A stretch of 64,000 nucleotides of DNA from Candidatus Binatia bacterium (lineage in GTDB: Bacteria; Desulfobacterota; Binatia; UBA9968; JAJDTQ01), in assembly GCA_963664535.1 (NCBI GenBank), contig OY761465.1, positions 3,565,178-3,629,177 on the forward strand, read 5' to 3'. Positions 7,435-57,098 of the stretch are shown here, one piece after another. How positions within the stretch are numbered: position 1 is the stretch's first letter; every line of letters begins with the position of its first letter. Below the pieces are notes generated by a model, which saw nothing but the letters and a program-made list of their open reading frames with translations, was not told the DNA's origin and did not search any database. A program made the translations under genes and the position numbers.

Positions 7435-7470
7435 CGGTGACGGGTTTCGAACCCGTCACCGTTCCTTGTT

Positions 7471-9498
7471 CTATTGAAAGGCCCTGACGTAGGCCCGTTG
7501 CACCCGCTCCACGCGGCCCGTGTACAGCAGGCCGAGGCGGGCGAACGCCTCCAGGGCGGCGCCGTCTCCCTGGTCCATGGGGAAGTGGATCACCTTGCGG
7601 AAACGCTTGATTTCCTTCTGGGACTCCTCGGTCAGGTGCTCCACCGCCTGCTGCAGCTCCTCGCGGCCCTTCAGCACCTTGTTGAGGATGGGAAGCACCA
7701 GCACGTCGGCCTTGTCCTGGATGCGTGACAGGGCCGCGCTCGCCACCGGCACCACGTCGATGCCGAGGTCGGAGAGGAAGTGGCTCAGCCTCTGCCCCAC
7801 GTTGTCCTTGAGGAACGCTTCCGGCACCGCCACGGCGTGCCGCAGCCGACGCCGCATCCACACCCAGCGCATGGCGCCGGGATAGACCTCGCGTTTCAGC
7901 TTTCTCAGGTATTCCTTGCTCAGCTCGCCCCAGGTCTGCTCCACCGCGGCGCTTTCCACGAACGGCCCGTCGGCCACCGTCTCGGGGTCGCCGTGGGCCT
8001 TGTCCACATAGTCGTGGAAGTGTTTTTCCGAGATCATGTAGCTGATGGCGTAGTCCAGCTTCTCGAAGCTGGGGTGGGGCCACATGATCTGCCGCAGGGT
8101 CTTAAGGAAGAAGCGGCGCCGGACGCTGTCGGTGGTGAAGATGTAGTGCCGGAAAGTGTTGGCCAGTATGCCGAGGACCTCCCGATCGATCTTGCTTCCC
8201 CGGCCCCGGCGCACGTACTCCGGCCGGAATGCCCTCACCCCGGTGGCCAGCCGCGCGCCGTAGTTTTCGTACTTGTAGAGGCTCCGGATCAGCCAGTTGT
8301 AGCCCTGCTGGACCTGCTCGACGGTCATCAGCTTGGGCACGAAGTTCAGGTCCGCGGAGCCGTGCCCCTTCATCTGCGCGGAGTCGTAGGGGATCAGCCG
8401 GCCTTCCTTCTCCAGGCGTTCGTAGAGCGGCGTCTTCTCGATGGCGGTCAGCACGCCGCTGGTGGTGAAGGCGATGCCGGCTTCCTGGAGGAAGTCGAAC
8501 TGCTCCTTGAAGATGTCGGTGTCGTCGTTGTCGAAGCCGACGATCATGCCCGCGAGGATCGCCATGTTGTGGGACTGGATCTTGCGGACGCTCTCCATCA
8601 GCGGCGAGGTGGTGTTCTGCCGCTTCTGGGTCTCGGTGAGGCTCGCCACCCGCGGCGACTCGATGCCCAGGAACATGCTGGTGAAGTTGGCGTCGTGCAG
8701 CAACTGGAGCAGCCTGGGCTTCTCCGCCACGTTGATGGTCATCTCCGCCGAGAAATTGATGGGATAGTTGTTGGCGCGGCCGTATTCCGACACTGCGGTG
8801 AGCAACTCCTCGGCGTAGCGCATGTTGCCGATGAGATTGGCATCCGAGAAGCTGATGTGTATGCCGCCGACGGACTCCACCGCCCGGATCTCCGCCAGCA
8901 CCTGCTCCACGCTCTTGGTGCGCGGCACCCGTCCGTCGGTAATGATGATGTCGCAGAACTCGCACTTGAAGGGACAGCCCCGAGTGGTCTGAAGGAAGTA
9001 GTAGAGGTAGTCGTCACGGGAAGCCAGGTCCACCCGCGGCACCGGCGAGAGCGAAATGTCGACGTTGCCCTCCTGCTTGTAGAGCGGCTTGTAAGTGCCG
9101 GTCCGGAGGTCGTCGCAGAACTGCGGCCAGGTGATCTCCACTTCGCCGTCAAAGACCACGTCGAAGAGCCCGTCGGTGAAGCGCTCGGGACACAGGGAGG
9201 GGTACGGGCCGCCCGCCACCACCATCTTTCCGCGCTTCCGGAACGCTTCCGCGATGTGCCGGGCGCGGCCGTACTGGATGCTCCAGCAGGCAATGGCCAC
9301 CACGTCGGCGTCGGTGTCGAACTGGAGCGGCTTGACGTTCTCGTCCTGCAGCTCGACGTCGAAGTCCGGCGGCGTCAGGGCGGCCACGGTGAGGAGCCCC
9401 AGCGGCGTCTGGGCGCAACGCTGCGGAAGGATGTCGGTTATCCCGGTCAGGCGCCACAGGGAGTTCGGAAAGCGCGGATTGACGAACAGAATTTTCAT
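7471..9498 (-). CDS. B12-binding-domain radical SAM protein with DUF4070-like region and ~170-aa extra C-terminal extension
   Basis: Has an N-terminal cobalamin-binding fold (MKILFVNPRF...) and a CxxxCxxC radical SAM motif (TTRGCPFKCEFCD). At 675 aa it is longer than the typical ~500 aa. Confidence 0.8.
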   Translation of the reverse strand: MKILFVNPRFPNSLWRLTGITDILPQRCAQTPLGLLTVAALTPPDFDVELQDENVKPLQFDTDADVVAIACWSIQYGRARHIAEAFRKRGKMVVAGGPYPSLCPERFTDGLFDVVFDGEVEITWPQFCDDLRTGTYKPLYKQEGNVDISLSPVPRVDLASRDDYLYYFLQTTRGCPFKCEFCDIIITDGRVPRTKSVEQVLAEIRAVESVGGIHISFSDANLIGNMRYAEELLTAVSEYGRANNYPINFSAEMTINVAEKPRLLQLLHDANFTSMFLGIESPRVASLTETQKRQNTTSPLMESVRKIQSHNMAILAGMIVGFDNDDTDIFKEQFDFLQEAGIAFTTSGVLTAIEKTPLYERLEKEGRLIPYDSAQMKGHGSADLNFVPKLMTVEQVQQGYNWLIRSLYKYENYGARLATGVRAFRPEYVRRGRGSKIDREVLGILANTFRHYIFTTDSVRRRFFLKTLRQIMWPHPSFEKLDYAISYMISEKHFHDYVDKAHGDPETVADGPFVESAAVEQTWGELSKEYLRKLKREVYPGAMRWVWMRRRLRHAVAVPEAFLKDNVGQRLSHFLSDLGIDVVPVASAALSRIQDKADVLVLPILNKVLKGREELQQAVEHLTEESQKEIKRFRKVIHFPMDQGDGAALEAFARLGLLYTGRVERVQRAYVRAFQ

Positions 9499-12550: not shown

Positions 12551-13861
12551 ATGAAGCTGTGGAATGGAAAACACCGGGCGCTCGGCTGGTTCCTGGTCCT
12601 GGGGTGGGTGCTGTTCGTCGCCGGGCTGCTGGTGCCGCGGGTTTCCGCGGTGGGGCCCGCCGGCTACCAGAGCCTGGAGACCTTCGCCAATATCCTCGCC
12701 ATCGTTCAGAAGAACTATGTCAAGGAGGTCGAAACGGAGAAGCTCGTCACCGGCGCCATCAAGGGCATGCTGACCTCGCTGGATCCCCACAGCGGCTACT
12801 TGACCGAGGCCGCGTACCAGGAACTCCAGACCGAGACCGAGGGTCGTTTCGGCGGCCTGGGACTCGAGATCACCATGCGCAACGGCGTGCTGACCGTGGT
12901 GTCGCCCATCGAGGGCACCCCGGCCTCCCGGGCCGGCGTGCAGCCGGGCGATCAGATCGTCGGCATCGACGATCGGTCCACCGAAGAAATGAGCCTCACC
13001 GACGCCGTCAAGCGGCTCCGGGGCGCCCGCGGCTCCAGCGTGACGATCCTGGTGCGGCGAAAGGACCAGGACAAGCTCCTGACTTTCACCATCGTCCGCG
13101 ACGTCATCGAGATCAGCAGCGTGCGCGCCTACGTCCTGGAGCCCGGGTTCCTTTACGTGCGCATCGCGCAGTTCCAGGACCGCACCGGCGATAACCTCGT
13201 CGCCGCCGTAATCGGGAACCAGCCCGCCGCCGGATCCTTCAAGGGTCTCGTGCTCGACCTGCGCAACAACCCGGGAGGCCTGCTGAGCCAGGCCGTGCGC
13301 GTCTCGGATCTCTTTCTGGACTCCGGCCTGATCGTCTACACCGACGGCCGTCTGGACCAGCAGAAACAGAAGTTCTCCGCCAGCCGCCCCAACTCCAGGA
13401 CCGATTTTCCGATGGTGGTGCTGGTGAACGGCGGCAGCGCGAGCGCCTCCGAGATCGTGGCGGGGGCGCTCCAGGACCACAAGCGGGCGCTGATATTGGG
13501 CACGAAGACCTTCGGCAAGGGGTCCGTGCAGACGATCCTTCCGCTGGACAACCGTTCGGCGCTTCGGCTGACCACGGCGGAGTATTTCACGCCCAACGGC
13601 CGGTCGATACACGAGACCGGCATCCAGCCGGACATCGTCATGGAAGGAAGCGCGCCGGCTCCGCAGGCCGCGAACGCGGAGGGGACGCAGGAGAAAAGCC
13701 CCGGGGAAAGCCCGCCGCCGGCGGTCCCGGGCGGCAAGACCGAGCCGCCGGACAGCGTCGCGCAGAGGGTCAAGAACGATCCCCAGGTGGCGCGGGCGCT
13801 GGAGTTGCTCAAGGGTTGGGAGATGTTCCGCGGGCTGGCCGGGTCGGGCAAGGCCACCTGA
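12551..13861 (+). CDS. ctpA: carboxyl-terminal processing protease (S41 family, PDZ domain)
   Basis: GGLGLEI PDZ region and the S41 catalytic region VVLVNGGSASASEIVAGALQD...TFGKGSVQT. Confidence 0.9.
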   Translation: MKLWNGKHRALGWFLVLGWVLFVAGLLVPRVSAVGPAGYQSLETFANILAIVQKNYVKEVETEKLVTGAIKGMLTSLDPHSGYLTEAAYQELQTETEGRFGGLGLEITMRNGVLTVVSPIEGTPASRAGVQPGDQIVGIDDRSTEEMSLTDAVKRLRGARGSSVTILVRRKDQDKLLTFTIVRDVIEISSVRAYVLEPGFLYVRIAQFQDRTGDNLVAAVIGNQPAAGSFKGLVLDLRNNPGGLLSQAVRVSDLFLDSGLIVYTDGRLDQQKQKFSASRPNSRTDFPMVVLVNGGSASASEIVAGALQDHKRALILGTKTFGKGSVQTILPLDNRSALRLTTAEYFTPNGRSIHETGIQPDIVMEGSAPAPQAANAEGTQEKSPGESPPPAVPGGKTEPPDSVAQRVKNDPQVARALELLKGWEMFRGLAGSGKAT

Positions 13862-13874
13862 GGCGGACGGTCCT

Positions 13875-15101
13875 ATGTCCCGTCTGTTCGTTCGCGAACC
13901 CGAAGCCGGCCCGTCCTCGGTGCTTACGGTCAGCGAGCTGAACGAGATCGTCCGGGACCGGCTGGAGACGGGACTCGGTGCGCTGTGGGTGACGGGCGAG
14001 CTCTCCAACGTGCGTTTTCCTCCCTCCGGACACGTCTACTTCACCCTCAAGGACGCGCAGTCGCAGATGTCCGCGGTGCTGTTCCGCCGTCACGCCGAGG
14101 GCCTGCGGTTCCGGCTGGAAGACGGCATGGAGGTGGTCTGCTCCGGGCGCGTGGGGCTGTACACGGTGCGGGGGGCGCTCCAGTTCTACGCCGTGGAGAT
14201 GGAAGCCCGCGGCAAGGGCGCGCTGACGGTCGCGTTCGAGCAGTTGAAGAAGCGGCTCCTGCAGGAGGGGTTGTTCGACCAGGACCGCAAGAAGCCGCTG
14301 CCGTTCCTGCCGCGGACCGTGGGGATCGTCACGTCGCTTCGAGGCGCGGCCGTGCGGGACATGCTGCGCATCATCGGCGACCGGTTCCCGGACCGGCGGG
14401 TCGTCGTTCGGCCCGTGCGGGTGCAGGGGCCGGGGTCCGCCGAAGAGATCGCCCGGGCGATCCGGGAGCTCGACGAGAGCCGCATGATCGACGTCATGAT
14501 CGTGGGCCGCGGCGGCGGCTCGCTGGAGGACCTCTGGGCCTTCAACGAGGAAGCGGTGGCCCGTGCCATGCACGCCGCGGCGGTTCCCATCGTTTCGGCG
14601 GTGGGACACGAGATCGACGTCACCATCGCGGACTTCGTTGCGGACCGGCGCGCGGCCACCCCCACGGCGGCGGCCGAGATGATCCTGCCGGAGAAAAGTG
14701 GACTGGTGGAGCACGTGGGGTTGCTCGCGCGGCGCCTGCGCCGGGGCACGGACGGCCGGCTGGAACGCCGGCGGGAGAGCCTGCGGCATTGGGCCGGCCG
14801 GCTGGCCGATCCCAGCCGGGGCCTGCGCCAGGGGCAGATGCGCCTGGACGATCTTTCGCTGCGCTTGTGGCGCCGCCAGGAGGATTCGGCGGCGAGGCTG
14901 AGGGAGCGCCTGGGCCATCTCGCGGGAAGACTGGAAAGCGTGAACCCGCTGGCGGTCCTGAGGCGCGGCTACAGTATCGTGTACCGGGTTTCCGACGGCA
15001 GCATCGTCACGGACGCCGCCGCGCTTCGCCGGGGAAATCAAGTGAGGCTGGACTTCGCGGCCGGCCGGGCCGTATGCCGGGTGGAGGAGGTGGACGAATA
15101 G
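13875..15101 (+). CDS. xseA: exodeoxyribonuclease VII large subunit
   Basis: OB-fold N-terminus (LTVSELNEIVRDRLE...VWVTGELSN) and the XseA catalytic core. Confidence 0.9.
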   Translation: MSRLFVREPEAGPSSVLTVSELNEIVRDRLETGLGALWVTGELSNVRFPPSGHVYFTLKDAQSQMSAVLFRRHAEGLRFRLEDGMEVVCSGRVGLYTVRGALQFYAVEMEARGKGALTVAFEQLKKRLLQEGLFDQDRKKPLPFLPRTVGIVTSLRGAAVRDMLRIIGDRFPDRRVVVRPVRVQGPGSAEEIARAIRELDESRMIDVMIVGRGGGSLEDLWAFNEEAVARAMHAAAVPIVSAVGHEIDVTIADFVADRRAATPTAAAEMILPEKSGLVEHVGLLARRLRRGTDGRLERRRESLRHWAGRLADPSRGLRQGQMRLDDLSLRLWRRQEDSAARLRERLGHLAGRLESVNPLAVLRRGYSIVYRVSDGSIVTDAAALRRGNQVRLDFAAGRAVCRVEEVDE

Positions 15102-15146
15102 GCTGGCGCAGGTCGCCGGCGACGTCGCCGTCAGGGGGGATTCAGC

Positions 15147-15404
15147 ATGTCGGAGCAGGACAGGACGCATGACGACAAGAGCTTCGAGGAATGTCTTCGG
15201 GCCCTCGAAGCCGTGGTGGAACGCATCGAGAGCGGAGAACTGAACCTCGAAGAGTCGCTGGCGACCTTCGAAGAGGGAGTGGGGCTGGTCCAGTCCTGCA
15301 ACCGCAAGCTGAGCGAGGTCGAGCGCCGGATCGAGGTGCTGACCAAGGACCCGGACGGCCGCCCCAGGCTGCAGGAATGGACGGAGGAGGAGTCTCCCGA
15401 CTAG
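15147..15404 (+). CDS. xseB: exodeoxyribonuclease VII small subunit
   Basis: 85 aa, FEECLRALEAVVERIESGELNLEESLATFEEGVGLVQSC, the typical XseB sequence. Confidence 0.85.
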   Translation: MSEQDRTHDDKSFEECLRALEAVVERIESGELNLEESLATFEEGVGLVQSCNRKLSEVERRIEVLTKDPDGRPRLQEWTEEESPD

Positions 15405-15434
15405 ACCGCCGGGACCGGGCGGCGAGAGAACGTC

Positions 15435-16253
15435 ATGGCCGTCGCGAAAGGACCGGGGGCGCGAAAGGCTTCGCGCAAGGAACGTCTCGACCGCGTGCTG
15501 GTGGACGCGTCGCTGTGCCGAAGCCGCGAGGAGGCCCAACGGTACATCCTGGCGGGAGCCGTGCTGGTGGACGACGTGCCCGTCACCAAGGCGGGCGCGC
15601 TGGTAAGACGGGATTCCCGGGTGCGCGTCAAGGCTTCCTCGCGTTACGCCAGCCGCGGAGGAGAGAAGCTCGAGGCGGCCCTGGAGCATTACGGCGTGAA
15701 GGCGGCGGGCAGGGCGGCGCTGGACGTGGGAGCGTCCAGCGGCGGTTTCACCGATTGTCTCCTGGCCCGCGGCGCGGCGCGTGTCCACGCCGTGGACGTG
15801 GGTTACGGGCAACTGGATTGGCGGCTCCGGCAGGACCCCCGCGTGGTGGTGCTGGAGCGGACCAATATCCGCCGTCTCGAGCCCGGCGCGTTGGGGGAGA
15901 TGCCGGATCTGGCCGTCGTGGACGTCTCCTTCATCTCGCTGCGGCTGGTCCTCCCGCGGGTGTGCGGCCTGCTGTCCCGTCCGTTCGATATCGTGGCGCT
16001 CATCAAGCCGCAGTTCGAGGTGGGCAAAGGCAAGGTCGGCAAGGGGGGCGTGGTGCGTTCGGAACAGGAACACCGGCGCGTCATCGGCGAGATCGAGGAG
16101 GCGGTGGACGCGCTGGGGCTGACGCGGCGGCCGGTTTTCCGGTCGCCGCTGCTGGGGCCCAAGGGCAACAGGGAGTTCTTCATCCACTGCCGTTCGCGGG
16201 CCGTCCCGGGCCCCGATTCAAATGCCGTTGACGGGGTTGACTTGGATGACTGA
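15435..16253 (+). CDS. tlyA: TlyA-family rRNA 2'-O-methyltransferase (S4 domain + FtsJ-like MTase)
   Basis: RLDRVLVD S4-like N-terminus and LDVGASSGGFTDCLLARGA SAM-binding motif. Confidence 0.85.
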   Translation: MAVAKGPGARKASRKERLDRVLVDASLCRSREEAQRYILAGAVLVDDVPVTKAGALVRRDSRVRVKASSRYASRGGEKLEAALEHYGVKAAGRAALDVGASSGGFTDCLLARGAARVHAVDVGYGQLDWRLRQDPRVVVLERTNIRRLEPGALGEMPDLAVVDVSFISLRLVLPRVCGLLSRPFDIVALIKPQFEVGKGKVGKGGVVRSEQEHRRVIGEIEEAVDALGLTRRPVFRSPLLGPKGNREFFIHCRSRAVPGPDSNAVDGVDLDD

Positions 16254-22500: not shown

Positions 22501-22690
22501 TCACGCCTCCCCCAGGTAGAGTCTCCTGGCGTTGTCCCGGGTGATCTTGCGCACCACCGCCTCGTCGATGCCGGCCATCTCGCGCTCGACCGTTTCATGT
22601 GAATACGGCCATACCGAATCACCGTGCGGATAGTCCGATGCCCATAGGACGGTGTCCGCGCCCAGCTCGTCCAACAGCTTCAGCCCCGTG
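22501..22690 (-). pseudogene. C-terminal remnant (~60 aa) of an amidohydrolase-2 family gene
   Basis: LKLLDELGADTVLWASDYPHGDSVWPYSHETVEREMAGIDEAVVRKITRDNARRLYLGE is the conserved C-terminus of PF04909 amidohydrolases. The upstream part of the listed ORF has no homology or coherent frame. Confidence 0.45.
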
Positions 22691-22844
22691 CCGGATGACC
22701 CTTCGTCAATCCGGCCTACGGCGTTCCGGGACGCCCTGTCCCGATCACCGCCGCATTGCCCGAAAGGTCGCCGGCTGGTAGCCTCGGCTCCCGGACAGAA
22801 CGCCGGCGGATCCATCCGGCGCGGCCGCGCACAACCAAGGAGGC

Positions 22845-23741
22845 ATGATGGTCATCGACATACACCGGCATTTCTGGCGCGGGATTCAGCGCTACTACGA
22901 CGCGCAGGCATCCCCGGAAGCCCCTCCGCCCGCCAAGCCGGACTGGGAGGAGACGGCACGCGAGCATGTCGCGGAGATGGACGCCTCGGGCGTGGACGCG
23001 TCCGTGATGCTGATAGCCGACTACGGCGACCGCCTCGGTACGCCGCACTTCCCCATCGACCAGGAGAACTGGATCCTTGCGCAGGCCCAGGAGCGTCACC
23101 GGGAGTACATCATCGCCTTCTACGGCATCGATCCGCGGCGCCCAAGCGCGCCCGAGAAGTTCGAACGGGCCATCGAGGAGTGGGGCATGAACGGCATCAA
23201 GCTGCACGCCACCGCCGGCTACTTCCCCCACGACCGGGTCTGCTATCCAATCTACGAGATCTGCATCAAGCACGACGTGCCGGTGCTGCATCACTCCGGC
23301 GAGCGCTTCCACCCGCTGCTGTACAGCCGTTTCACCCACCCGCTGGAATTCGACCAAGTGGCCGTGGACTTCCCGCGCCTGAAGATGATCATGGGCCACG
23401 CCGGCGGCCAGTGGTGGGCCGACTGCGCCACCATCGCGCGCACCCACGAGAACGTGGTGGTGGATCTGGCCGAGTGGCAGACCAAGCTGCGGGACAAACC
23501 CGGGGAGACGCTCGCCGCCCTGGACCACATGCGCGACTTCCTGGGCGCCGAACGGATACTCTGGGGCACCGACTTCCCGCACATGCGCCAACAGATGTCT
23601 CTCAAGGACACCGTGGATATCTACCGCCAGCTCCCCGCCCTGGCGCGGGAGCACGGCTACCGGTTCACCGACAGCGAGGTCGAAGCCATGTTGGGCGGGA
23701 ACGCCGCGAGGATACTCGGGCGGGGCGGGTGCCTTGGCTGA
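22845..23741 (+). CDS. amidohydrolase family 2 (PF04909-like metal-dependent hydrolase/decarboxylase)
   Basis: IDIHRHF N-terminal metal-binding His pair and ILWGTDFPH C-terminal motif. Confidence 0.8.
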   Translation: MMVIDIHRHFWRGIQRYYDAQASPEAPPPAKPDWEETAREHVAEMDASGVDASVMLIADYGDRLGTPHFPIDQENWILAQAQERHREYIIAFYGIDPRRPSAPEKFERAIEEWGMNGIKLHATAGYFPHDRVCYPIYEICIKHDVPVLHHSGERFHPLLYSRFTHPLEFDQVAVDFPRLKMIMGHAGGQWWADCATIARTHENVVVDLAEWQTKLRDKPGETLAALDHMRDFLGAERILWGTDFPHMRQQMSLKDTVDIYRQLPALAREHGYRFTDSEVEAMLGGNAARILGRGGCLG

Positions 23742-26793: not shown

Positions 26794-28503
26794 TCAGAAG
26801 AGAAAATACCGCTGCGCCATGGGCACGGTCCGCGCCGGTTCGCACGTCAGCAGCTCGCCGTCGGCGCGTACCTCGTAGGTTTCGGGGTCCACCTCCATGC
26901 GCAGGGTGGCGCCGTTGTGGATCAAGTCTTCCTTGCAGAGGTCTCGTGTTCGCTTCACTGGAAGGAGTGGCCTCCGGAGTTGCAGCGCGCCGGCGAGATC
27001 GGCGTCGAGCGCCGCGGCGCTCACGAAGGTGACAGTGTTCTCGCGTCGCGAGCCGCTGAAGGCGCCGAACATCGGCCGGTAGTGCACCGGCTGTGGGGTC
27101 GGGATGGAGGCGTTGGGGTCGCCCATGGGCGCGGCGACGATGACGCCGCCCTTGAGGATGACGTCTGGCTTGACGCCGAAGAAGGCCGGCGACCACAGCA
27201 TCAGGTCGGCGAGCTTCCCCGGTTCCACCGATCCGACGTATTCCGATATGCCGTGGGTGATGGCCGGGTTGATGGTGTACTTGGCCAGGTAACGCTTTGC
27301 CCGGACATTGTCGTTGTCCGCCGTCTCCGCGGAAAGCCGGCCGCGCTGGCGCTTCATCTTGTCCGCGGTCTGCCACGTGCGGATGATGACCTCGCCCACG
27401 CGGCCCATGGCCTGGCTGTCGGACGCCATCATGCTGAACGCGCCCAGGTCGTGCAGGATGTCCTCGGCCGCCATGGTCTCCTTGCGGATGCGGCTTTCCG
27501 CGAAGGCCACGTCCTCGGCGATGGCCGGGTCCAGGTGATGGCAGCACATGAGCATGTCGAGGTGCTCGTCCACGGTGTTGACGGTGAAGGGCCGCGTCGG
27601 GTTGGTGGAGGAGGGCAGCACGTGGGAAAGGCCGCAGAGCTTGATGATGTCGGGCGCATGGCCGCCGCCGGCGCCCTCGGTGTGGAATGTGTGGATGGTG
27701 CGGCCCTTGAACGCCCGCAGGGTGTCCTCCACGAAGCCCGATTCGTTCAGCGTGTCCGTGTGGATGAGCACCTGCACGTCGTAGGCGTCGCCCACGGACA
27801 GGCATGTGTCGATGGCGGCCGGTGTGGTGCCCCAGTCCTCGTGCAGCTTCAGGCCGCAGGCTCCCGCCCGGACCTGCTCCTCCAGAGCCGCGGGCCGGCT
27901 GGCGTTGCCCTTGCCGAAGAAGCCCAGGTTCACCGGGAACGCCTCCGCCGCCTGGAGCATGCGGCCCAGGTGCCAGGGTCCCGGCGTGCAGGTGGTGGCG
28001 TTGGTGCCCGCCGCCGGTCCCGTACCGCCGCCGAGCATGGTGGTGACGCCGCTGAAGAGTGCGTCTTCCACTTGTTGGGGACAGATGAAGTGGATGTGGA
28101 CGTCGAGCCCGCCCGCGGTGACGATCTTGCCCTCGCCGGCGATGACCTCGGTGCCCGGCCCGATGATGTTGTCCACCGCCGGTTGCGTGTCCGGATTGCC
28201 GGCTTTGCCGATGGCGTGGATACGGCCGTCCCGGATGCCGATGTCCGCCTTGACGATGCCCCAGTGGTCCAGCACCAGGGCGTTGGTGATGACCGTGTCG
28301 ATCGCGCCTTCCGCCCGGGTGGCCTGGCTCTGACCCATGCCGTCGCGGATGGTCTTGCCGCCGCCGAACTTCACCTCGTCGCCGTAGACCGTCCGGTCCT
28401 CCTCCACCTCGATAAAGAGCTCGGTGTCCGCCAGCCGGACCCGGTCCCCGACCGTTGGTCCGAACATGGCCGCGTAGGCCGCACGCTCGATCTTTCTTGC
28501 CAT
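26794..28503 (-). CDS. ureC: urease alpha subunit
   Basis: [27 protein letters not shown]..., the HxH metal ligands and the flap region. The start was chosen at an internal Met of the listed ORF. Confidence 0.95.
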
Positions 28504-28571
28504 GGGTCGCCTTTCTTGCTTCGCTCCGCATCGCCGCACGCGCGGTGGCGTGGGCGGGACGGCCGGACCGT

Positions 28572-41400: not shown

Positions 41401-42279
41401 TCACCCGAGGGCGAGGACCCAACACAACAACACGGCCGCGGCAGCCAGAACGCCGATCTTGAGCTGCATGGGGGCATCGTCCGGCCGGTCCGCGGTGGCC
41501 GCCCGCAAGCCGCCCACGGCTCCGCCCGCGGCAAACCCCCAGAAATGCGCCCACAGGTCCGTCCGCTGGCCCCCGGTGCCGAGCATGGCGAGGATCGCCA
41601 GTCCGGCGGCCAGCGGCACCCAGGCGCGCCGTCCCCGGACGCCGATGCGCCGCCGCCGCGCTACCTGTGTCCCGCCCAGCACGCCGAGCGCGCCGAAGAC
41701 CGCGGTGGAGGCGCCGACCGAAATGTGGTCGAAGCCGTAGAACCAGGCATTGCAGAGGTTCCCCAGCGCGCCCGCGCCCAGCACCAGCGCGGCCCCGACC
41801 CCCGGCCCCTCGGAACGGCACACCGCGGTCAGGAAGAACAGCATGGCCACGGCGTTGGAGCCCACGTGGGGCAGATCGGCATGCAGGGTGAGGGCGGTGA
41901 TCGTGCGCCACAGCTCGCCGCCGAGGATGAGCTCGGCGGAGGCTCCGCCGTGGGCGACCCAGCGCACCGTCCCGTGGGTCCAGGCGGCGAAGACGTAGAA
42001 CGCCAGCAGGCCCGCGGCAACCGCCGCGCCCGTGTAAAGAGGCGCCTCGCCGGTCCACACCTCCTCTTCTGGAGCGGCGGCACGGGTCTCGCTCTCGTAG
42101 TCCCAGAGCTCCGTCACCGCCCGCTCCAGGTGTTGCGAGGGCACCGAGAGGACCCAACCCCCGGAAGTGTGCACCAGACGCGGGCGCAGGCCCTCCGCTT
42201 CCAGCACCAGGGCCCATTCCTCCGCCAGCCGGAGATCCGGCGTCCTGCGTACGATGATGTCCCTTCCTGCCTGGGTCAT
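41401..42279 (-). CDS. rhomboid-family intramembrane serine protease
   Basis: The TM core carries the catalytic GASTAVFGALG (GxSx) and AHFWGFAAG (His) motifs. The N-terminal cytoplasmic domain starts at MTQAGRD. Confidence 0.75.
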   Translation of the reverse strand: MTQAGRDIIVRRTPDLRLAEEWALVLEAEGLRPRLVHTSGGWVLSVPSQHLERAVTELWDYESETRAAAPEEEVWTGEAPLYTGAAVAAGLLAFYVFAAWTHGTVRWVAHGGASAELILGGELWRTITALTLHADLPHVGSNAVAMLFFLTAVCRSEGPGVGAALVLGAGALGNLCNAWFYGFDHISVGASTAVFGALGVLGGTQVARRRRIGVRGRRAWVPLAAGLAILAMLGTGGQRTDLWAHFWGFAAGGAVGGLRAATADRPDDAPMQLKIGVLAAAAVLLCWVLALG

Positions 42280-42386
42280 GGGCGTCGCTTCGAATCGGTC
42301 ATTTGCCGGCCCCGACCAGCCGGATCCGGCGCATGGGACGTAGATACAAGACACGAATAGCGGCTTCAACTACCGCCGCCGCGGTC

Positions 42387-43250
42387 TCACCGCCAGGTGA
42401 TGAGCACGATCCCGGTGACGATCAGGACTGCCCCGGCCGCCACCCGGGCGTTGACGGTCTCCAGGTCCCGCAGGAACAGCGCGCTGAAGAACACGATGAA
42501 GAGCGGGTTGGTGTTGATCAGCGGCACCACCACCGACACGTCCCCCTCGCTCAGGGCGATGTAGCCCAGCAGTTGAGCGGTGGCCGACACGACGGCCGCG
42601 GCGCCGTAGAACGGCAGGCACTTCCGGTCCCCCTGGAAGGTGGCGCGCAACTGGCCCGTGGCCGCCAGGCTGAGCGAGAAGACGACCAGGGAGGTGGTGA
42701 TGGTGACGGCGGTGGCGACGAACGGGTTGGGCATGATCCGCAACCCGGTCTTGCGGAAGTTCTGGGAGATGGCCGTAAGGAAGGCCGCGCCCAGCGGGTA
42801 CGCCAGGTGAATCGCCTTCCACTCGCTCTCGCCCTCCCGCCGGCTCGAGGTGAGCCAGACCCCGACGACGCTCAGGAGCGAACCCAGATAGACCCCGGCG
42901 TCGGGCCGTTCTCCCAGGAACGTGAACGCCAGGGCGATGGCGAAGAGCGGCGTGACGCTGCGCACCGGGCCGGCGCGGGAGGCCCCCAGGCGGACGATGC
43001 CGGTGTAGTGGAGAAAACGGACGATGGCGGGTTGGATCAGGCCGCTGATGATGAAGTACCAGGTTCCCTTGGTGTACAGCAGGCCCAGGGGGAAGAAGAC
43101 CCAGATGGCGCCCCACAGCGCCGCCGTGCTCAGCACGAACCCCATGAGCGCGGCCAGCGCCACGCTGGCGTAGCGCGAACCCCGGCGCACCAGGATCGCT
43201 TCGGAGCCCCAGGCCACCGCCGCTGTCAGGGCAAGAGACTCGGGGCCCAT
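42387..43250 (-). CDS. EamA/DMT-family transporter
   Basis: 287 aa, 10 TM segments, duplicated EamA-like halves. Confidence 0.75.
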   Translation of the reverse strand: MGPESLALTAAVAWGSEAILVRRGSRYASVALAALMGFVLSTAALWGAIWVFFPLGLLYTKGTWYFIISGLIQPAIVRFLHYTGIVRLGASRAGPVRSVTPLFAIALAFTFLGERPDAGVYLGSLLSVVGVWLTSSRREGESEWKAIHLAYPLGAAFLTAISQNFRKTGLRIMPNPFVATAVTITTSLVVFSLSLAATGQLRATFQGDRKCLPFYGAAAVVSATAQLLGYIALSEGDVSVVVPLINTNPLFIVFFSALFLRDLETVNARVAAGAVLIVTGIVLITWR

Positions 43251-43274: not shown

Positions 43275-44124
43275 CTCACTCCAGCACGAGCGGCGTGTCG
43301 TCGCGGTTGGCCCACTCGCCCATGGAGCCGTCGTAGTTGCGCGCCCGCTCGTAGCCCAGCAGTGTCAGGACGAAGACTCCGTGCGCCGCACGGATGCCGC
43401 CCTGTCAATAGGCGACCACTTCCTTGCCGGGCGGAACCCCCGCCCGCTCCAGCAGGCCGCGCAGCTCCCCGGCCTCCTTCAGGGTCTTGTAGGGGTTGTC
43501 CTGGAGGAAGTTGAGCCACTCCAGGTGCACCGCGCCCGGTATGCGGCCCGCCCGCTTGTTGCCGCGGTCGTTGGCGCCCGTCCACTCGCCGTCGGACCGC
43601 ACGTCCAGGTACACCACGTCCGGATTGTCGACGTTGGCCGTCCCGTAGTCCAGGGTGCACACGAGGTCCGGGTTGGCCTTGGGGTTGAAGACCGCGCCCT
43701 GGGGCTTCGGCACCTCCAGGGTCATGGGCCGCCCCTCGTCGAACCACTTCTTCCAGCCGCCGTTGAGCACGGTGACCTCGGTATGGCCGTAGTAGTTCAG
43801 CACCCACCACAGCCGGGCGGCCCACAAAGAGCCGTTGCTGTCGTAGGCCACCACCCGCGTGCCCTCGCCGATGCCCAGGCTCTCCATCACTTCCCTGGCC
43901 GTGTCCGGCGGCGCCACCAGAGGATACTTCCGGTTGTCCGTGTCGTACCCCGGCTGCTTGATGTAGTGGTGCACGCGTATGCCCACGGCGCCCTTGATGT
44001 GGGCGCGACGGTAGACGTCGAAGGGGTCGCAGTCCACGATGCGAATGTCCGGGTCATCGAGGTGCTGCTCCAGCCAGTCCGTCTCCACCAGCAGCTCCGG
44101 GCGAGCGTAGCCGTCCTCTGTCAT
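43275..44124 (-). pseudogene. tandem-rhodanese sulfurtransferase interrupted by an in-frame TGA at the catalytic-Cys codon (43405-43407) and a +1 frameshift 9 codons later; candidate selenoprotein or pseudogene
   Basis: Listed ORF 43405..44124 ends ...GKEVVAY*. Downstream the rhodanese C-terminus reads *QGGIRAAH / (extra C) / GVFVLTLLGYERARNYDGSMGEWANRDDTPLVLE*. This aligns residue-for-residue with C-[RQ]xGxR...YDGSWSEW active-site loops, placing TGA exactly at the Cys. Confidence 0.6.
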
Positions 44125-44250
44125 GGGTTTGCCTCCTGGTGTCCTGTCCGGCGCCCGCCGCTCCCGCGGTGGGAGGCCGCAAGCGGAGCCGGGCCGACGT
44201 GTCGAATCTCTACCAGATGAAACCGCGGCGCGCGAGAGCCGCCGGGAGCG

Positions 44251-45901
44251 TTGTCCAATGAGAACATGATGTTGAAGGAGGACTAGCGAGCGGGTCTAGT
44301 CAGCAGCGTGTTTTGGGTTGAGGCGGTATGTTGGCTGTTGTCGGCTTTTCTGTCAATCGGTGTAGCGCGGTAGCGCCCCCGCGTGGGGGGTGGTGAGGTG
44401 CGCCGACCCGGTTCCGAGGGTCTTGCAAAGACTTCCCCCCATACCTTGGAGTCACGGTTTATACGAGGCGGCCGGTGTCGACTCGATGGTCACACGGTAG
44501 AGGGGCAGCACAAACGCCTCGGTCCGGCGGCAGGCAATCGGCCACGAACGCGTCATCAGGCGGCATGGGGCGGAGCGAGGTCGATGGCGCGGAACAGGTC
44601 CCGGCGGGCGTCGTTGACTCGCCGGACGGCGTCGAGGTCGCTCATGGCGTAGGCGATCCGGTCCAGTTCGTCGAAGCTGGTGTTGTCCTTGAGGTGGCTC
44701 TTTGCGTCCGGGAGGGACTTCAGCTTCTCGTAGGGCGTGCTCACGTCCTCCCGCCGGTACTTGCGGCGCACCTTGCCGTGGTCGCGGTACTCGGCGGCGA
44801 ACAGGCACGGGCGGTGGAAGTTCAGGAACGGCGACAGTTCGCGCAGCGCGAACTCGTTGACGATCCCGGCGAAGCGCTGCGGGATGTGGTCGTGGCCGAA
44901 CCACTTGCGCACGATGTGTGCGTTCTTACCCTCCACCAGCGCGTTGTCGTTCGAGTGCCGCGCCCGCGACTTGGTGAACTTCCGGATGTGCAGCTTGTTC
45001 AGCAGCGCCGCTACGCGGTGGTTGATGTACTCGGACCCGTTGTCCGCGTGGAATGCGGCCACCGTGAACGGGAACAGCGACAGCACGGCTTCAAGCAGCG
45101 GTACCAGGAACCTCTCCGAGATGCCCCGTACAGCCCCCACGTATTCGTACTGCGTGACCTCGTCAACGAGGTTGACCAAGTACAGGCCCTTCACGCCGTT
45201 CCGGTCGCCCTGGTGGACCGTGTCCACGCGCAGGTGCCCCGGCTTCCCCTGCGGGTCCGGCGCCTGGCGCAGCGCGATGCCCACCGTCGCCGCACGCGTC
45301 TTCGTCCACACCGTGCGCTTGGTCACGTACGTTTTCGACGCCCGGAGGTTGTAGACGTGGCTGTTCGAGATGCCCGCCAGCCGCTCGAAACGCTCGTCCC
45401 CGAACACCTCGTGCTGCCGGCGCAGCAACTCGCAAGTGGCCAGCCCCGACATCTGCCCGAACGCCTCGTCCACCTCCGCCAATAGCCGGATGTCCACTCC
45501 CGTGTACCGGCGCTCGAACGGCCGACCGCGGTTGCCCCCGCGCCGATCCTCGATCCTGCCGCTCTCCCGCCATTGCCGGATCAGGCGGTCGATCTGCACC
45601 GCCGAAATCCCGGTCGCCTTGGCCAGAAAGCGGCGCACGATGCCCTTGTCGCGCTTGCCCAACGTCCTGTAGCGGAGCCGGCCAAGCAGTTCGCCGACAA
45701 AGCCGTAGGCGCTCTCCCGATCCCGGTGTCCGTAGTCCACAGCCTCGTTGCCTTCCACGAAGGCCCGAACCTGCTCAATGCTGCGTAGCCGCCGCGTCTG
45801 TAGTGTCACAATCATCCCTCCATGTTCTACGACACGCCGGCTTCAGCATCACTTCGCCTTGGATTCACCTCCCTCCTTCAGCATCATGCCGCGTTGGACA
45901 G
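44251..45901. mobile_element. IS element (ISNCY/IS1202-like) with imperfect ~30-bp terminal inverted repeats
   Basis: 44251-44281 (ttgtccaatgagaacatgatgttgaaggagg) is approximately the reverse complement of 45872-45901 (cctccttcagcatcatgccgcgttggacag), about 22/30 matches. A single DDE transposase gene lies inside. Confidence 0.5.
44556..45815 (-). CDS. DDE-type integrase/transposase (rve core), ISNCY-family-like
   Basis: 419 aa with an N-terminal HTH region and an integrase core (...HADNGSEYINH...VEGKNAHIVRKWFGHDHIP...). Confidence 0.85.
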   Translation of the reverse strand: MIVTLQTRRLRSIEQVRAFVEGNEAVDYGHRDRESAYGFVGELLGRLRYRTLGKRDKGIVRRFLAKATGISAVQIDRLIRQWRESGRIEDRRGGNRGRPFERRYTGVDIRLLAEVDEAFGQMSGLATCELLRRQHEVFGDERFERLAGISNSHVYNLRASKTYVTKRTVWTKTRAATVGIALRQAPDPQGKPGHLRVDTVHQGDRNGVKGLYLVNLVDEVTQYEYVGAVRGISERFLVPLLEAVLSLFPFTVAAFHADNGSEYINHRVAALLNKLHIRKFTKSRARHSNDNALVEGKNAHIVRKWFGHDHIPQRFAGIVNEFALRELSPFLNFHRPCLFAAEYRDHGKVRRKYRREDVSTPYEKLKSLPDAKSHLKDNTSFDELDRIAYAMSDLDAVRRVNDARRDLFRAIDLAPPHAA

Positions 45902-51820: not shown

Positions 51821-52294
51821 CTATTGCAAGCCGAGTTTCTGATCCTGGGCAGTCAACTCGTCCAGCGCATCTCGGCGACGAGACTCCGTATCCCGACGAT
51901 AGGCGAGAATGTCTTCGGTCCGCACACGCCGATGTGAGCCGACCTTACGGCATGGGATTCGTCCCTCGTCGAGCAACCGTACCAGGAACGTCCTCGAAAC
52001 CTGCAGGAGATCGGCCGCTTGCCGTGTGGTCAACTCGGCCTGAACCGGTGTCAACGCAACTGTATTGCCACGCGCCATCTGATCCAGAATCTCGCGCAGA
52101 AGCCGTAGCGCTTGGACGGGAATCTCGACCGTTTCCTCGCCGGCCGCGCCAAATCGAACCGGAACCGGCTCAGTCCCATCCGGCAACTCTGCCAGTTTCC
52201 TGCCGATATGGTCGGCAAGAAATGCGTCCCGGCCGCTCGCAAACCCAGTCTCTCCGTCCTTCATGGCTCGATTTCCCATTGGCACCGCCTCCAT
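51821..52294 (-). CDS. excisionase-family HTH (HTH_17/MerR-like) DNA-binding protein, putative antitoxin
   Basis: LTTRQAADLLQVSRTFLVRLLDEGRIPCRKVGSHRRVRTEDILAY is the excisionase-family HTH. Its stop lies 3 nt before the PIN start. Confidence 0.65.
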   Translation of the reverse strand: MEAVPMGNRAMKDGETGFASGRDAFLADHIGRKLAELPDGTEPVPVRFGAAGEETVEIPVQALRLLREILDQMARGNTVALTPVQAELTTRQAADLLQVSRTFLVRLLDEGRIPCRKVGSHRRVRTEDILAYRRDTESRRRDALDELTAQDQKLGLQ

Positions 52295-53030: not shown

Positions 53031-56000
53031 TTAACTCCGAAGCCTCTTGGCGATCTTCGCTCTCGAATCTTGCCAGTTGGCATCGTGGTCGTAGGTAACG
53101 GCAATATCCTCGAGGATTCCACCGACGTAAGGATAGTCGAAGTGGAGCTGCTCGGCCCAAGCACGATATCTTGCGGCGAGCTCCCGCTCCTGCTGGCCCC
53201 CTTCGCCCCGCCAGTGAACGCCGCGAGAGTTGCAAGCACCGATGACGAGTCCTCTGCCGATCTCCGAGGACGCTACCTCCTCCATTGCCTCGCAGACTGC
53301 TTTGCACGGCCATAAGCCGTCTTCGTCCTTGGGCGCCTTGGCAAGGAGTTGACCGAGCCAAAGATCGCCAGCCTCGACGCGGCCGTACTCGCGACAAAGG
53401 CGCCGCACCCCATCAAGCCACTTTGATAGTGCCACCGCGTCAATTTTACCGTTCTCGTCTTTGCCGGGAATCACTTCCAATCGATCGAGAAGGCGATAGG
53501 CTGCCCTTCTGACTGAAGCTCGCTGTTCTGGGTCTTCGACCAGCCATTCCGGCGGGTCTTCTTCTTCGTCACTTCGCTCGTATGTGAGGGCAATCGCCTG
53601 GACGAACGATATCGGTGACTGCGCAATCATGCGTTCGAGATTCGGAATCCCGTGCTTGCTGTGATCGAGGACATCGATGTAGAGGAATTCCAATTCAGCC
53701 ATTTCACCACGGGTGATACCCGCACGACCATCAAGCACCTCGAATGCTTCGGAAATAAAGTGCCCGTCGATCTTGAAATGGCCTGCTGGTTCGGCGTTGC
53801 CCGTGGCGACGTCACGCAGCAGCCGCTTGAGGCGGGACGTCTCGACATGCTCAATATTCATGTGGACGGCGCGGAAAGCTGCGCGTGGCCGGGCAGCGTC
53901 CAGAAGGCCATCCATGAGTTCGGAGAGTTCGGCGGGCGTGTGTCGGTGGCAGACAGGGTACACTTGCTTCCAGTATCCAACGCGGATGTCCTCTCCTTCA
54001 CCGTCGAGCAGACGCCACGTCGAGTCTCGGAACGGCGCATTTACAAACAGGCGCGTACGTTCGTCGGGGGGCATTACTCTGGCTGCGGCCTGTAGCACCT
54101 TGGTGCGAGAGTCGTCTTCAATGGCCCAAAGGGCACCCTGTAGACACGACTCGGCTTCATCTCGAAGGTCTTCATCAAGAGAAAGGCAGCGCCGGATGAA
54201 CTCAACTCGTTCATCAACGTTGGGAACGCACGATATCGCATATTGGCCAACCGTGTGGGCGGCACCGGTGGCAGTCAGCAGTTCCTTGACACCTTCGAAA
54301 CCATACTCTGCCCAGATGTCGTTCATCGCTTCCCGGCGCAGCCTGTCGATACGGTCGTCGCGTTTTTGCCAGTCGAAGTCCTCGTCATCGAATTCGTCAG
54401 CGGATTCCTGTACCCACTGATTGGCGAACAGCCAACGATGCCGGGCAACCGGATCTTGGGGTTGGAGTTTTTCGTAGGTCTCCCGCGCGCGGTCGCGGGC
54501 TGTTTCTCCGATCTTCAGGTGGCGGGCACGCCGGGTGAGGGCAAACCGTCTGATGCGTTCGCGTAACGCGGCCTTGGCAGATTCGCTGGCGTTAATGGAC
54601 CATCCGTCGATCAAATCCCAGACCTTGGTCTGTTCGTCCTCGGGAATGCCTTCGAGTGATTCGACGAGGTCGCCAAGAGTCGTTTCATCGTGGGACGGCC
54701 ACGCGACTATGAGGTCTAGCGCCTCTCGAGTGAAGTGATGAAGTTCCTTGTAAGTGACTACCTGCCCGGCCCCGGAGGCGTCACTACGCCAACGGGGCCT
54801 GTAGCTGTCGTGCCCGAACCGTGGACCGCGCTTGATTTGCTCGATACAGATCTCCCAACCGACATTGGGAAAATTCCTGACGAGCGCTTTCAACGCTTTG
54901 ATCCTCTGTTCCAATGTCGCTGCTGTCTGTGGCATCCAAGATCTGAAAATGGCCTGCAGGCTGGCGTCCGGTTTGTTAACCCAGTTGTCGTCGATTTCTT
55001 GCCTGGAAAGGCGAGCGAGGATTTTGGTTACCCGCGAGAGGTTGCTGGGGTTCCATGCAAGGCACTCCATGGCCCAGAGCAGACCAGTCCGTGAAGGAGA
55101 CAAGAATATCGAGCCGCTGTCGACCGGCTTGAGAAGGCCGAAGACCACGGGTTCGTCTTGGCGTAGGTCACCTTCGATGATCTTTAGGAATTCGTCGGGT
55201 GCGGCCTCTGCAAAGTACGGCAGGTTTTGGTCGTGCGAGAGCAGCTTCTCAAGTGCCAAAGGCGTCAAGAGTTTAAGGATCAGACCAGAAACTCTGGCTT
55301 CAGCATCGAGCCCGATACGGTCCCGGAGCAGGTTGTTTCCATGTACTGACAGGATCACGAGTGTCTCGCAGATTCCCTTACGTAGAGCGTCGGAGTGCTC
55401 ATGGGTCTTGTCATAAAACACTGCAGCCCACCTGTCGTCTTCCGGCAGGTCAAGGGCAGGATCAGTCTCGGAAAGCACAATTGCGGCGGCGGAGAAGAAC
55501 CGATCGAGGTCTGCTGGTGTGATCATCCTGGCAATAGCGAACAAAGCATCGATTTTTGAGACGACCCCCCGGTGGCTACCGGCGGACCACGCTGGGCTGT
55601 CATCGAGCTGAAGCAAGGGCATGACGTTACCTTCGACCGCCTCGTATTTCCGATCCGCCACATAGGCCAATATCTTGCGGTCCGCTTCCCGCTTAGTGTT
55701 CCAGGCTCCGATCAGGGCCATAGGTACGAGGGCTTTCGCGGTATCGTCATCGCCTGCCCAGACCGGCGTTCTGATCGCGGCGTTCTTTGAGAGGCGGCGA
55801 CGAAGGATTGTCGGCGAGCAACCGGATTCCCTTGCCAGCCGATCCATTTGGTCCCGTGCAACTCCGGCGGCATTTAGGGCCTTCCTAAAGGCCTCATGAC
55901 CGAGAAGATCAAGTGTGATATCCGCATTAACATTCACGTCATTGCGAGGTCGGAAAACGATGCCGTGAAGTCGGCGATAGGCGTCGGCAAGCTCGCGCTC

Positions 56001-57098
56001 GACATCCTCGGAGACAACGATCGGAATGAACGGTACTGACGACGAAATCAGAGTTCGAAGAGTCGGAGGAGATGTGAAAATCGCGGTAAGGTCTTTGGAT
56101 TGATGGAACTCTTGCACATCAAACAGGCAAGCAAGGAAGGCGAGTGCTTCGTCCCGTGAGTCAGCCGAGACGACAAATGGCTTGTTGCTCGGGTTGGTGA
56201 GCCACTTCTTGAAAGTGCCTTGGTACGCTGCGATCGAAGGTGCGAAGATTTCGGGTGTCAGATGTGGCTCGCTGGCATTCGCCCATCGATTCCATGCTTG
56301 CTCAAGAGTCTCGTACCCGTTGACCGGCAATCCAACTTGCTCGGCAAACCAGATCTGCGCTGGCACGGACTGCTCCAGCCACTGCTCGATGTCGCTCGCA
56401 TCGAATACTCTGACTGCCTTCCAGTCTCCAGCCTCATTTTTCAGTTTTTCCCAAGTCGTCTTGCCTGCCCAGTTGCGGGGGGTGACAAAAACGAAGGTGC
56501 TCTTGGCACGTTCGGGGCGGCCAACCGAGATCAGGCGGGAGGAATAGTCGTTCTCTGCTTTGACACGGGACTCTTTGTTGGTGCCGAACTCCCAATGGGA
56601 CAGCCCTTCGGGAACCCAGGGGGTGGCGGCGGACGCTTCGACAAAACCATCGTCGCCTTTGCGTTGGGCGTTGTCGTAACCGGGGAAGTCGACCCTGAGA
56701 AGTCCGTTGCCCGTTGATTGCACCAACTTTCGCAGCAACACGGGTAGGTGAGTGCGCGCATCAATTTGGCCGGCCCAATCCTCGATCTGTCTTGCGGTGA
56801 TGGTCAGGAAACTGGGCACGAAGGCGCGTACCGCGACGGCCCTTTCCCCAACCTGTCGCTCTTGCAGGTCGTGCGCTGACTGCATGTCCAGCAGTCTCTG
56901 ACGGTCGGCGCCAAACGCCTTCTCCAATCTGACCGCCATCTCCGGGGACAGGGCAGATCTCCCGTTTAGGAAGTTCGACAGCGCTGGGCGGCCTATGCCG
57001 AGTCGGTTGGCCGCGTCTTTGACTGTCATGCCAGACGGAATGACGTTTTGCCGGACAAAGGTGCCTGGATGCTGGTGTAAATCCGGATGAGCTTTCAT
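53031..57098 (-). CDS. 1355-aa protein: N-terminal HigA/XRE-type HTH domain fused to a ~1250-aa region of unknown function
   Basis: N-terminal MTVKDAANRLGIGRPALSNFLNGRSALSPEMAVRLEKAFG is a HigA-family antidote HTH. The rest has no recognisable P-loop, nuclease or protease motif. It is a single long ORF in a lower-GC island. Confidence 0.7.
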   Translation of the reverse strand: MKAHPDLHQHPGTFVRQNVIPSGMTVKDAANRLGIGRPALSNFLNGRSALSPEMAVRLEKAFGADRQRLLDMQSAHDLQERQVGERAVAVRAFVPSFLTITARQIEDWAGQIDARTHLPVLLRKLVQSTGNGLLRVDFPGYDNAQRKGDDGFVEASAATPWVPEGLSHWEFGTNKESRVKAENDYSSRLISVGRPERAKSTFVFVTPRNWAGKTTWEKLKNEAGDWKAVRVFDASDIEQWLEQSVPAQIWFAEQVGLPVNGYETLEQAWNRWANASEPHLTPEIFAPSIAAYQGTFKKWLTNPSNKPFVVSADSRDEALAFLACLFDVQEFHQSKDLTAIFTSPPTLRTLISSSVPFIPIVVSEDVERELADAYRRLHGIVFRPRNDVNVNADITLDLLGHEAFRKALNAAGVARDQMDRLARESGCSPTILRRRLSKNAAIRTPVWAGDDDTAKALVPMALIGAWNTKREADRKILAYVADRKYEAVEGNVMPLLQLDDSPAWSAGSHRGVVSKIDALFAIARMITPADLDRFFSAAAIVLSETDPALDLPEDDRWAAVFYDKTHEHSDALRKGICETLVILSVHGNNLLRDRIGLDAEARVSGLILKLLTPLALEKLLSHDQNLPYFAEAAPDEFLKIIEGDLRQDEPVVFGLLKPVDSGSIFLSPSRTGLLWAMECLAWNPSNLSRVTKILARLSRQEIDDNWVNKPDASLQAIFRSWMPQTAATLEQRIKALKALVRNFPNVGWEICIEQIKRGPRFGHDSYRPRWRSDASGAGQVVTYKELHHFTREALDLIVAWPSHDETTLGDLVESLEGIPEDEQTKVWDLIDGWSINASESAKAALRERIRRFALTRRARHLKIGETARDRARETYEKLQPQDPVARHRWLFANQWVQESADEFDDEDFDWQKRDDRIDRLRREAMNDIWAEYGFEGVKELLTATGAAHTVGQYAISCVPNVDERVEFIRRCLSLDEDLRDEAESCLQGALWAIEDDSRTKVLQAAARVMPPDERTRLFVNAPFRDSTWRLLDGEGEDIRVGYWKQVYPVCHRHTPAELSELMDGLLDAARPRAAFRAVHMNIEHVETSRLKRLLRDVATGNAEPAGHFKIDGHFISEAFEVLDGRAGITRGEMAELEFLYIDVLDHSKHGIPNLERMIAQSPISFVQAIALTYERSDEEEDPPEWLVEDPEQRASVRRAAYRLLDRLEVIPGKDENGKIDAVALSKWLDGVRRLCREYGRVEAGDLWLGQLLAKAPKDEDGLWPCKAVCEAMEEVASSEIGRGLVIGACNSRGVHWRGEGGQQERELAARYRAWAEQLHFDYPYVGGILEDIAVTYDHDANWQDSRAKIAKRLRS

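Follow-up and report, generated by a model that had tools for sequence, protein, structure and literature searches.

Rhodaneses that contain Sec form established families of predicted selenoproteins (PMC1088965, PMC13188914), as an initial annotation of the DNA described here had already stated. Among 15 new selenoprotein families found in the Sargasso Sea was the 'rhodanese-related sulfurtransferase' (COG2897), represented there by 3 sequences (Zhang, Fomenko and Gladyshev 2005, PMC1088965). A 2026 review describes five rhodanese selenoprotein forms, of which form 4 is the Sargasso family, with the motif UxxG (PMC13188914). In the literature on the Sec-rhodanese family, we found no protein-level or selenium-labelling data. 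Here, we analysed a 64-kb stretch of DNA from a Candidatus Binatia bacterium, hereafter referred to as the window, and compared one of its genes with related loci. Based on these comparisons, we estimate a probability of roughly 90% that the minus-strand gene 44124-43275 encodes a 282-residue tandem-domain rhodanese of the thiosulfate/3-mercaptopyruvate sulfurtransferase type (COG2897/SseA-like), in which the catalytic residue 240 is selenocysteine (Sec). Rhodaneses with Sec in place of Cys have been described since 2005, so the gene does not define a new category and its main value is for annotation. Every public record that we examined annotates the gene as a 239-residue truncated or hypothetical sulfurtransferase, and the family that is mislabelled in this way spans at least 80 species-level genomes from Binatia, SAR202/Dehalococcoidia and Entotheonella.

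Gene structure and reading frame

The gene and its signals are the following.
43275..44124, minus strand: predicted Sec-rhodanese gene, complete two-domain coding sequence of 282 residues (single-frame translation, Pfam, alignment to 1UAR)
44132..44137, minus strand: Shine-Dalgarno-like AGGAGG, 7 nt 5' of the ATG at 44124-44122 (read from the sequence)
43405..43407, minus strand: in-frame UGA, codon 240, at the position of the catalytic Cys, putative Sec codon (alignment, and TGA in 82 of 82 sequences)
43275..43277, minus strand: true stop (TGA) of the full-length protein (translation; orthologues end equivalently with TAA, TAG or TGA)

The open reading frame is present on the minus strand at 43275-44124, as first annotated. 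It is composed of 239 codons, a TGA, 42 further codons and a stop, all of which lie in one frame. The first 239 residues end in ...GKEVVAY and are followed by the TGA and by the 42-residue tail QGGIRAAHGVFVLTLLGYERARNYDGSMGEWANRDDTPLVLE. The initial annotation had placed a frameshift, 'one extra C', at 43377-43379, and had offered as one of two readings a doubly disabled pseudogene. This frameshift does not exist: translation in a single frame gives ...VVAY*QGGIRAAHGVFVLTLLGYERARNYDGSMGEWANRDDTPLVLE*, and the extra base was a counting error. The direct translation thus rules out a frameshifted, 'doubly disabled' gene, as the alleged second lesion is absent. The Pfam family Rhodanese (PF00581) matches the gene product in two stretches (E = 1.3e-36). 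GC3 is 0.93 both 5' and 3' of the TGA, and a scan of the 64-kb window shows that codon 240 is its only in-frame TGA with coding GC3 on both sides. UGA also terminates the same gene, which indicates that this codon is not reassigned genome-wide.

A single lesion could still make the gene a pseudogene, in which translation would truly end at the TGA and yield a dead protein of 239 residues, deprived of the active-site loop. Gene callers and public annotations do stop at 239 aa, and an rve-type transposase directly upstream (44556-45815) gives a hint of local genome disturbance. Against this, GC3 does not change across the TGA, and the comparative evidence described below also speaks against a pseudogene.

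Comparison with homologues and solved structures

The TGA that follows ...VVAY (43407-43405) is real and, as initially annotated, it stands at the catalytic Cys. In a full-length alignment (E = 9e-47), in which residues 5-279 of the gene product align to residues 2-280 of the Thermus thermophilus rhodanese 1UAR, codon 240 aligns with the catalytic Cys of that enzyme (VVYCRIAERSSH). Full-length alignments were also obtained with Azotobacter RhdA (1E0C), Mycobacterium SseA (3HZU) and bovine rhodanese (1RHD), and E values for the four structures range from 9e-47 to 1e-32. All of them share with the predicted protein the tandem rhodanese domains and a catalytic residue that starts the six-residue loop of the C-terminal domain. 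They differ in that all four have Cys at this position, and their loops read CRIAERS, CQTHHRS or CRKGVTA, whereas the loop reads UQGGIRA here.

The protein database was queried with the read-through product, in which Cys was written for the TGA. Seven full-length homologues with 56-60% identity (P0062, P0067, P0078, P0092, P0101, P0103 and P0111) have a Cys aligned with the TGA. They read 'TYCQGGIRAAH' around it, in the context Y-C-QGGIRAAHG...NYDGSM.EWANRDDTPLVLE. Since these Cys enzymes have the same residues at the same place, what the window encodes after the TGA is simply how the enzyme normally continues. Of the 120 best database matches, about 105 (60-92% identity) were called at about 239 aa and cover 85% of the query, which means that they end at the same codon. 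One homologue, P0086 (Tectimicrobiota, 253 aa), follows the family up to about 20 residues short of the Sec position, where it switches to '...LPIDRAASVRRTDCSS'. This segment corresponds to the nucleotide sequence of the family translated in a different frame, and the TGA is masked by a frameshift that lies upstream in that assembly.

Active-site loop signatures of these sulfurtransferases are CRxGx[R/T] for TST and CG[S/T]GVT for MST. The loop U-Q-G-G-I-R agrees with the TST signature at positions 4 and 6; at position 2 it has Q, where the signature has R. With the NCBIfam 3-MST equivalog PRK11493 the product scores 114.8 against a cutoff of 250. Membership in NF041203 (rhodanese_LYCAU) was considered and rejected, as the product scores 35.3 bits where the cutoff is 115. 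The product stays below the cutoff of every NCBIfam model, so annotation pipelines will keep mislabelling the family.

Among the described selenoproteins, the gene fits form 4 by description, because of its UxxG motif (U-Q-G-G) and its two-domain COG2897 architecture. Common to the Sargasso form 4 and to this gene are the rhodanese fold, Sec (here predicted) in place of the catalytic Cys, the U-x-x-G motif and the two-domain SseA/COG2897 architecture. Both also have a bacterial SECIS, or a candidate for one, directly 3' of the codon, with a G in a small apical loop, and both have marine or uncultured carriers. Form 4, to which the gene is likened by motif and architecture (examples AACY01016424 and MCY3690685.1), comprised 3 sequences when it was described, compared with at least 80 species-level genomes here. 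The single-domain Sec-rhodaneses, i.e. forms 1-3 of the COG0607/PspE type and NF041203 with its CxU motif, likewise have a rhodanese domain with Sec. However, they consist of one domain and have other Sec motifs, while the motif here is Y-U-Q and not CxU.

Conservation of the TGA and of the tail

A scan of one genome per species yielded 80 loci, to which the Binatia locus L001 was added; with the window, the sample comprises 82 sequences. Judged by record names, the carriers are Candidatus Binatia, which are the closest (84-92% identity), Dehalococcoidia/SAR202/Chloroflexota, which form the majority, Entotheonella TSY1 and DD2, and a few bins with other labels. The catalytic position is TGA in 82 of the 82 sequences, i.e. 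in the window and in 81 loci from about 80 species-level genomes with 58-92% protein identity, and conservation extends across phyla. The comparison of Cys and Sec homologues that had been suggested with the initial annotation thus gave a uniform TGA in this sample, and an active-site loop that is shared with the seven full-length Cys homologues.

After the TGA, all loci have a conserved in-frame tail of 41-46 residues that ends with TAA, TAG or TGA. Over tail codons +10 to +36, pS is 0.74 and pN is 0.15 (pN/pS 0.20). With synonymous sites near saturation, this ratio shows that the tail is translated and is under purifying selection at the protein level.

These data bear on the pseudogene and also on a second alternative, in which a sequencing or assembly error has changed a TGC or TGT codon of an ordinary Cys rhodanese. 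A change of one base could indeed make TGA from TGC, and there are genuine Cys forms that share the loop. However, the TGA is found in 82 of 82 independent assemblies, which include long-read closed chromosomes, and such an error has a next to negligible probability. The pseudogene is effectively refuted by conservation, since 81 loci of several phyla, with 58-92% protein identity, share the TGA and have an intact tail, and since pN/pS in the tail is 0.2 at near-saturated synonymous sites; we regard it as extremely improbable. A uniform TGA combined with purifying selection on the tail is a pattern that neither a pseudogene nor a sequencing error can yield. The Sec sulfurtransferase, which was the other reading offered by the initial annotation, is strongly supported by the TGA in 82 of 82 sequences, by selection on the tail, by the fit of the hairpin described below to the SECIS model, by the frozen synonymous sites of this hairpin and by the Cys forms with the same loop; the doubly disabled pseudogene did not stand.

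A SECIS-like hairpin downstream of the UGA

The RNA features near the UGA are the following.
43378..43394, minus strand: apical SECIS-like hairpin UCCGUGC-GGC-GCACGGA with a 7-bp stem (folding, RNAalifold consensus, frozen synonymous sites)
43397..43404, minus strand: 5' arm of the lower helix, CAGGGCGG (predicted fold, window and Binatia relatives)
43366..43373, minus strand: 3' arm of the lower helix, UCGUCCUG (predicted fold, window and Binatia relatives)

The apical hairpin is composed of the 5' arm UCCGUGC (43394-43388), the loop GGC (43387-43385) and the 3' arm GCACGGA (43384-43378). It overlaps the codons [Ile244-Gly249] of the active-site loop and begins 10 nt after the UGA. The hairpin CCGUGC-GGC-GCACGG had been noticed initially, and it exists, extended to 7 bp by a U-A pair. 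The spacing of 13 nt that was given for it is incorrect: the 6-bp stem starts 11 nt and the 7-bp stem 10 nt after the UGA.

The 71 nt that start at the UGA fold as an extended hairpin of -32.6 kcal/mol. In a shuffle test of this single sequence (z = -2.06, 9 of 200 shuffles), the local fold is only modestly unusual, so the case for a hairpin above chance is a comparative one. The consensus structure obtained with RNAalifold from 72 distinct orthologous sequences consists of the apical part only. Across the orthologues, pairing is kept in 96.8% of cells for the apical stem. For the lower helix the figure is only 77%, with no significant covariation among 71 sequences, and we therefore treat this helix as lineage-specific and not as part of the conserved element.

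The apical hairpin agrees with the published model of bacterial SECIS elements (PMC13188914, Fig. 2) in all four of its criteria. The apical loop has 3 nt (GGC, which starts with GG) where the model has 3-9 nt, and the upper stem has 7 bp (model, 4-16 bp). The distance from the UGA to the loop is 17 nt (43404-43388), within the 16-37 nt of the model. The minimum free energy of the apical hairpin alone is -10.7 kcal/mol, while the model has -7.5 kcal/mol or lower, a value reached by 67 of the 72 orthologues. When the hairpin is compared with the SECIS of the Escherichia coli fdhF type, both lie inside the coding sequence a short way 3' of the UGA, and both have a small G-bearing loop and a spacing in the consensus range (PMC13188914). 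The two have no sequence resemblance, however; the loop is a GGC triloop here, no bulged U is evident, and recognition by SelB is only putative. A scan of the window against Rfam at gathering thresholds detected no SECIS family and no tRNA-Sec; its matches were a tRNA-Met and '5_ureB_sRNA'.

Selection on the hairpin nucleotides

The hairpin is located in the codons of the invariant peptide I-R-A-A-H-G, which makes synonymous sites the informative test. Third-position entropy in codons 244-249 is 0.45, 0.10, 0, 0, 0 and 0.71 bit, and these codons are exactly the hairpin, while four-fold sites elsewhere in the gene have 1.2-1.9 bits. The codons found are ATC in 75/81, CGT in 80/81, GCG in 81/81, GCG in 81/81, CAC in 81/81 and GGA in 65/81 sequences. 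Two Gly codons just 5' of these and the Val and Leu codons just 3' of them vary freely. The hairpin codons are frozen in low-GC SAR202 genomes and in 66%-GC Binatia genomes alike. The SECIS core CGUGCGGCGCACG coincides with the catalytic-loop codons Arg-Ala-Ala-His and hardly varies among Binatia, Chloroflexota and Entotheonella. Furthermore, the loop G, a synonymous site that is unpaired, is invariant in 81/81 sequences, which points to sequence-specific recognition. The hairpin is thus under selection at the RNA level. The codons that flank the UGA are also constrained (UAU in 77/81 and CAG in 77/81). This constraint on the flanking codons and on the hairpin is specific to the TGA forms, and it is a further point against the sequencing error discussed above.

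Covariation in the hairpin is nearly nil, and changes on both sides are found only at the hairpin pair 18-32. Two Entotheonella loci have a double change from C-G to A-U (AUA...GUA), which keeps the pair at the cost of a Gly to Val replacement. Covariation is scarce because the hairpin is nearly invariant, and the evidence at the RNA level consists of the conservation of synonymous sites and not of compensatory changes.

The DNA of five Cys forms, a small and phylogenetically related sample, was used as a control. In three of the five, a CGC codon disrupts the U-A pair, and the Ala and Gly codons are variable. The remaining two, L083 and L085, have UGC at the catalytic position and nevertheless keep the complete hairpin (AUC CGU GCG GCG CAC GGA). 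This is compatible with a recent conversion from Sec to Cys, or with a hairpin that is older than the use of Sec. In these five sequences, the trend is in the direction that a SECIS would predict. It can also be imagined that the coding sequence of the active site is predisposed to act as a SECIS, and that Cys and Sec could thereby be exchanged repeatedly, or a self-contained Sec cassette be transferred across phyla, but we consider this unlikely. Equally doubtful, and separate from it, is a role of the enzyme in selenium trafficking, e.g. of Se to SelD, rather than in sulfur transfer, an idea prompted by the ability of rhodaneses to mobilise selenium in vitro.

If it functions as a SECIS, this very short conserved element, with its 7-bp stem and GGC triloop in an active-site loop, is a possible test case for SelB recognition outside Proteobacteria.

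Proposed mechanism

In the proposed mechanism, the UGA at 43407-43405 would be recoded in the way usual for bacteria. The hairpin that the mRNA forms 10 nt 3' of the UGA, with its 7-bp stem and GGC loop, would bind SelB-GTP-Sec-tRNA(Sec) and deliver Sec to the A site. Translation would then run on through the loop U-Q-G-G-I-R-A, complete the final helices of the catalytic domain and end at the stop (43277-43275). By analogy with known rhodaneses, the enzyme probably follows the ping-pong mechanism, in which a selenolate would do the work of the thiolate: it would take up a sulfane sulfur, forming an Se-S(H) adduct, and then hand the sulfur to an acceptor. We infer from the sequences Sec insertion itself, its dependence on SelB, the presence of selABCD in this genome and the substrates of the enzyme.

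A different way to read through the UGA would make no use of selenium: the hairpin could stimulate the incorporation of a standard amino acid, either Trp or, via a near-cognate or dedicated tRNA, Cys. This alternative draws on the fact that Sec at residue 240 is something we infer, as are the Sec genes of this genome, and on the leaky context of a UGA followed by C. We consider it very unlikely. The position needs a chalcogen nucleophile and Trp would kill the enzyme, while a Cys codon is a simpler solution that related lineages use. Moreover, the hairpin fits the SECIS model of the SelB type, including the invariant unpaired GG of the loop at a synonymous site, and at least one carrier lineage is reported with a full set of Sec genes (PMC11703216). 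The insertion of Sec is the reading that we retain.

Search for the Sec machinery

Neither selA, selB, selD nor a tRNA-Sec was found in the 64-kb window with ARAGORN, Rfam, Pfam and tblastn, or in about 1 Mb of flanking sequence of the 81 related loci with ARAGORN and tblastn. The tblastn queries were E. coli SelA, SelB and SelD from NC_000913.3, and the targets were the window and all the loci. The only SelB-like match, in L080, is a GTPase that we read as TypA/BipA from its sequence, and it was rejected. Pfam annotation of the 47 predicted genes of the window showed no Sec machinery and no other selenoprotein. The lack of Sec machinery in the window can be counted in favour of the pseudogene; however, linkage is not required, and the missing sel genes near the rhodanese are not evidence against Sec. 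A full set of Sec genes has been reported in Entotheonella, one of the carrier lineages (preprint, PMC11703216). A literature search on Sec in SAR202 or Binatia found nothing specific. The predicted Sec-rhodanese would identify its carriers, uncultured lineages that are often marine or associated with sponges, as users of selenium.

Neighbouring genes and other features of the window

Two genes located 3' of the rhodanese gene are given for context.
42387..43250, minus strand: EamA-family transporter, downstream neighbour (Pfam; same gene order in the Binatia locus L001)
41401-42369, minus strand: rhomboid gene, 3' of the EamA gene (Pfam; same gene order in the Binatia locus L001)

No universal operon partner of the rhodanese gene was found across the loci. 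In the Binatia loci and in the window itself, the genes 3' of the rhodanese gene on the same strand encode an EamA transporter and a rhomboid protease. In 27 Dehalococcoidia/SAR202 loci (among L012-L081), an ASST arylsulfotransferase gene (PF05935/PF14269) lies immediately after the stop of the Sec-rhodanese gene on the same strand, e.g. at 6875-7996 (plus strand) in L038; it has no counterpart in the Binatia loci. The two genes form a possible operon that would link the enzyme to organosulfur metabolism in SAR202. In L004, ARAGORN places a tRNA-Thr(GGT) at 6804-6877 (plus strand), where it overlaps with the final ~40 nt of coding sequence of the Sec-rhodanese; either the call is spurious or the tRNA gene is packed very tightly.

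Directly upstream of the rhodanese gene in the window, a 419-aa ORF (44556-45815, minus strand) has an integrase core (rve) and is likely an IS transposase. It looks like a recent insertion that has separated the rhodanese gene from its previous neighbour, because the syntenic Binatia locus L001 has an Amidohydro_2 gene at this place.

Farther away, segment 50600-57100 is a low-GC island, with a GC content of 0.58 compared with ~0.66 elsewhere and a GC3 of ~0.6. It holds an HTH_17 excisionase-like gene (51821-52294, minus strand) and the gene of a 1355-aa protein (53031-57098, minus strand), in which an N-terminal HTH_3 is the sole recognised domain. The island is probably horizontally acquired or a mobile element. 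The Rfam match '5_ureB_sRNA' (28062-28351, plus strand, 117.8 bits) is antisense inside the urease alpha-subunit gene (26794-28539, minus strand) of a ureABC-ureFG cluster, and it most likely reflects conserved urease coding sequence, not an antisense sRNA of the Helicobacter type. A 792-aa ORF at 13809-16187 (minus strand) has no Pfam match and an unusual composition (GC1 0.86, GC3 0.74); it may be a call on the wrong strand or in the wrong frame, or a low-complexity protein. The 104-aa ORF at 22501-22815 (minus strand) matches only the C-terminal 56 positions of Amidohydro_2, and it is probably a gene fragment that adjoins the intact paralogue at 22845-23741.
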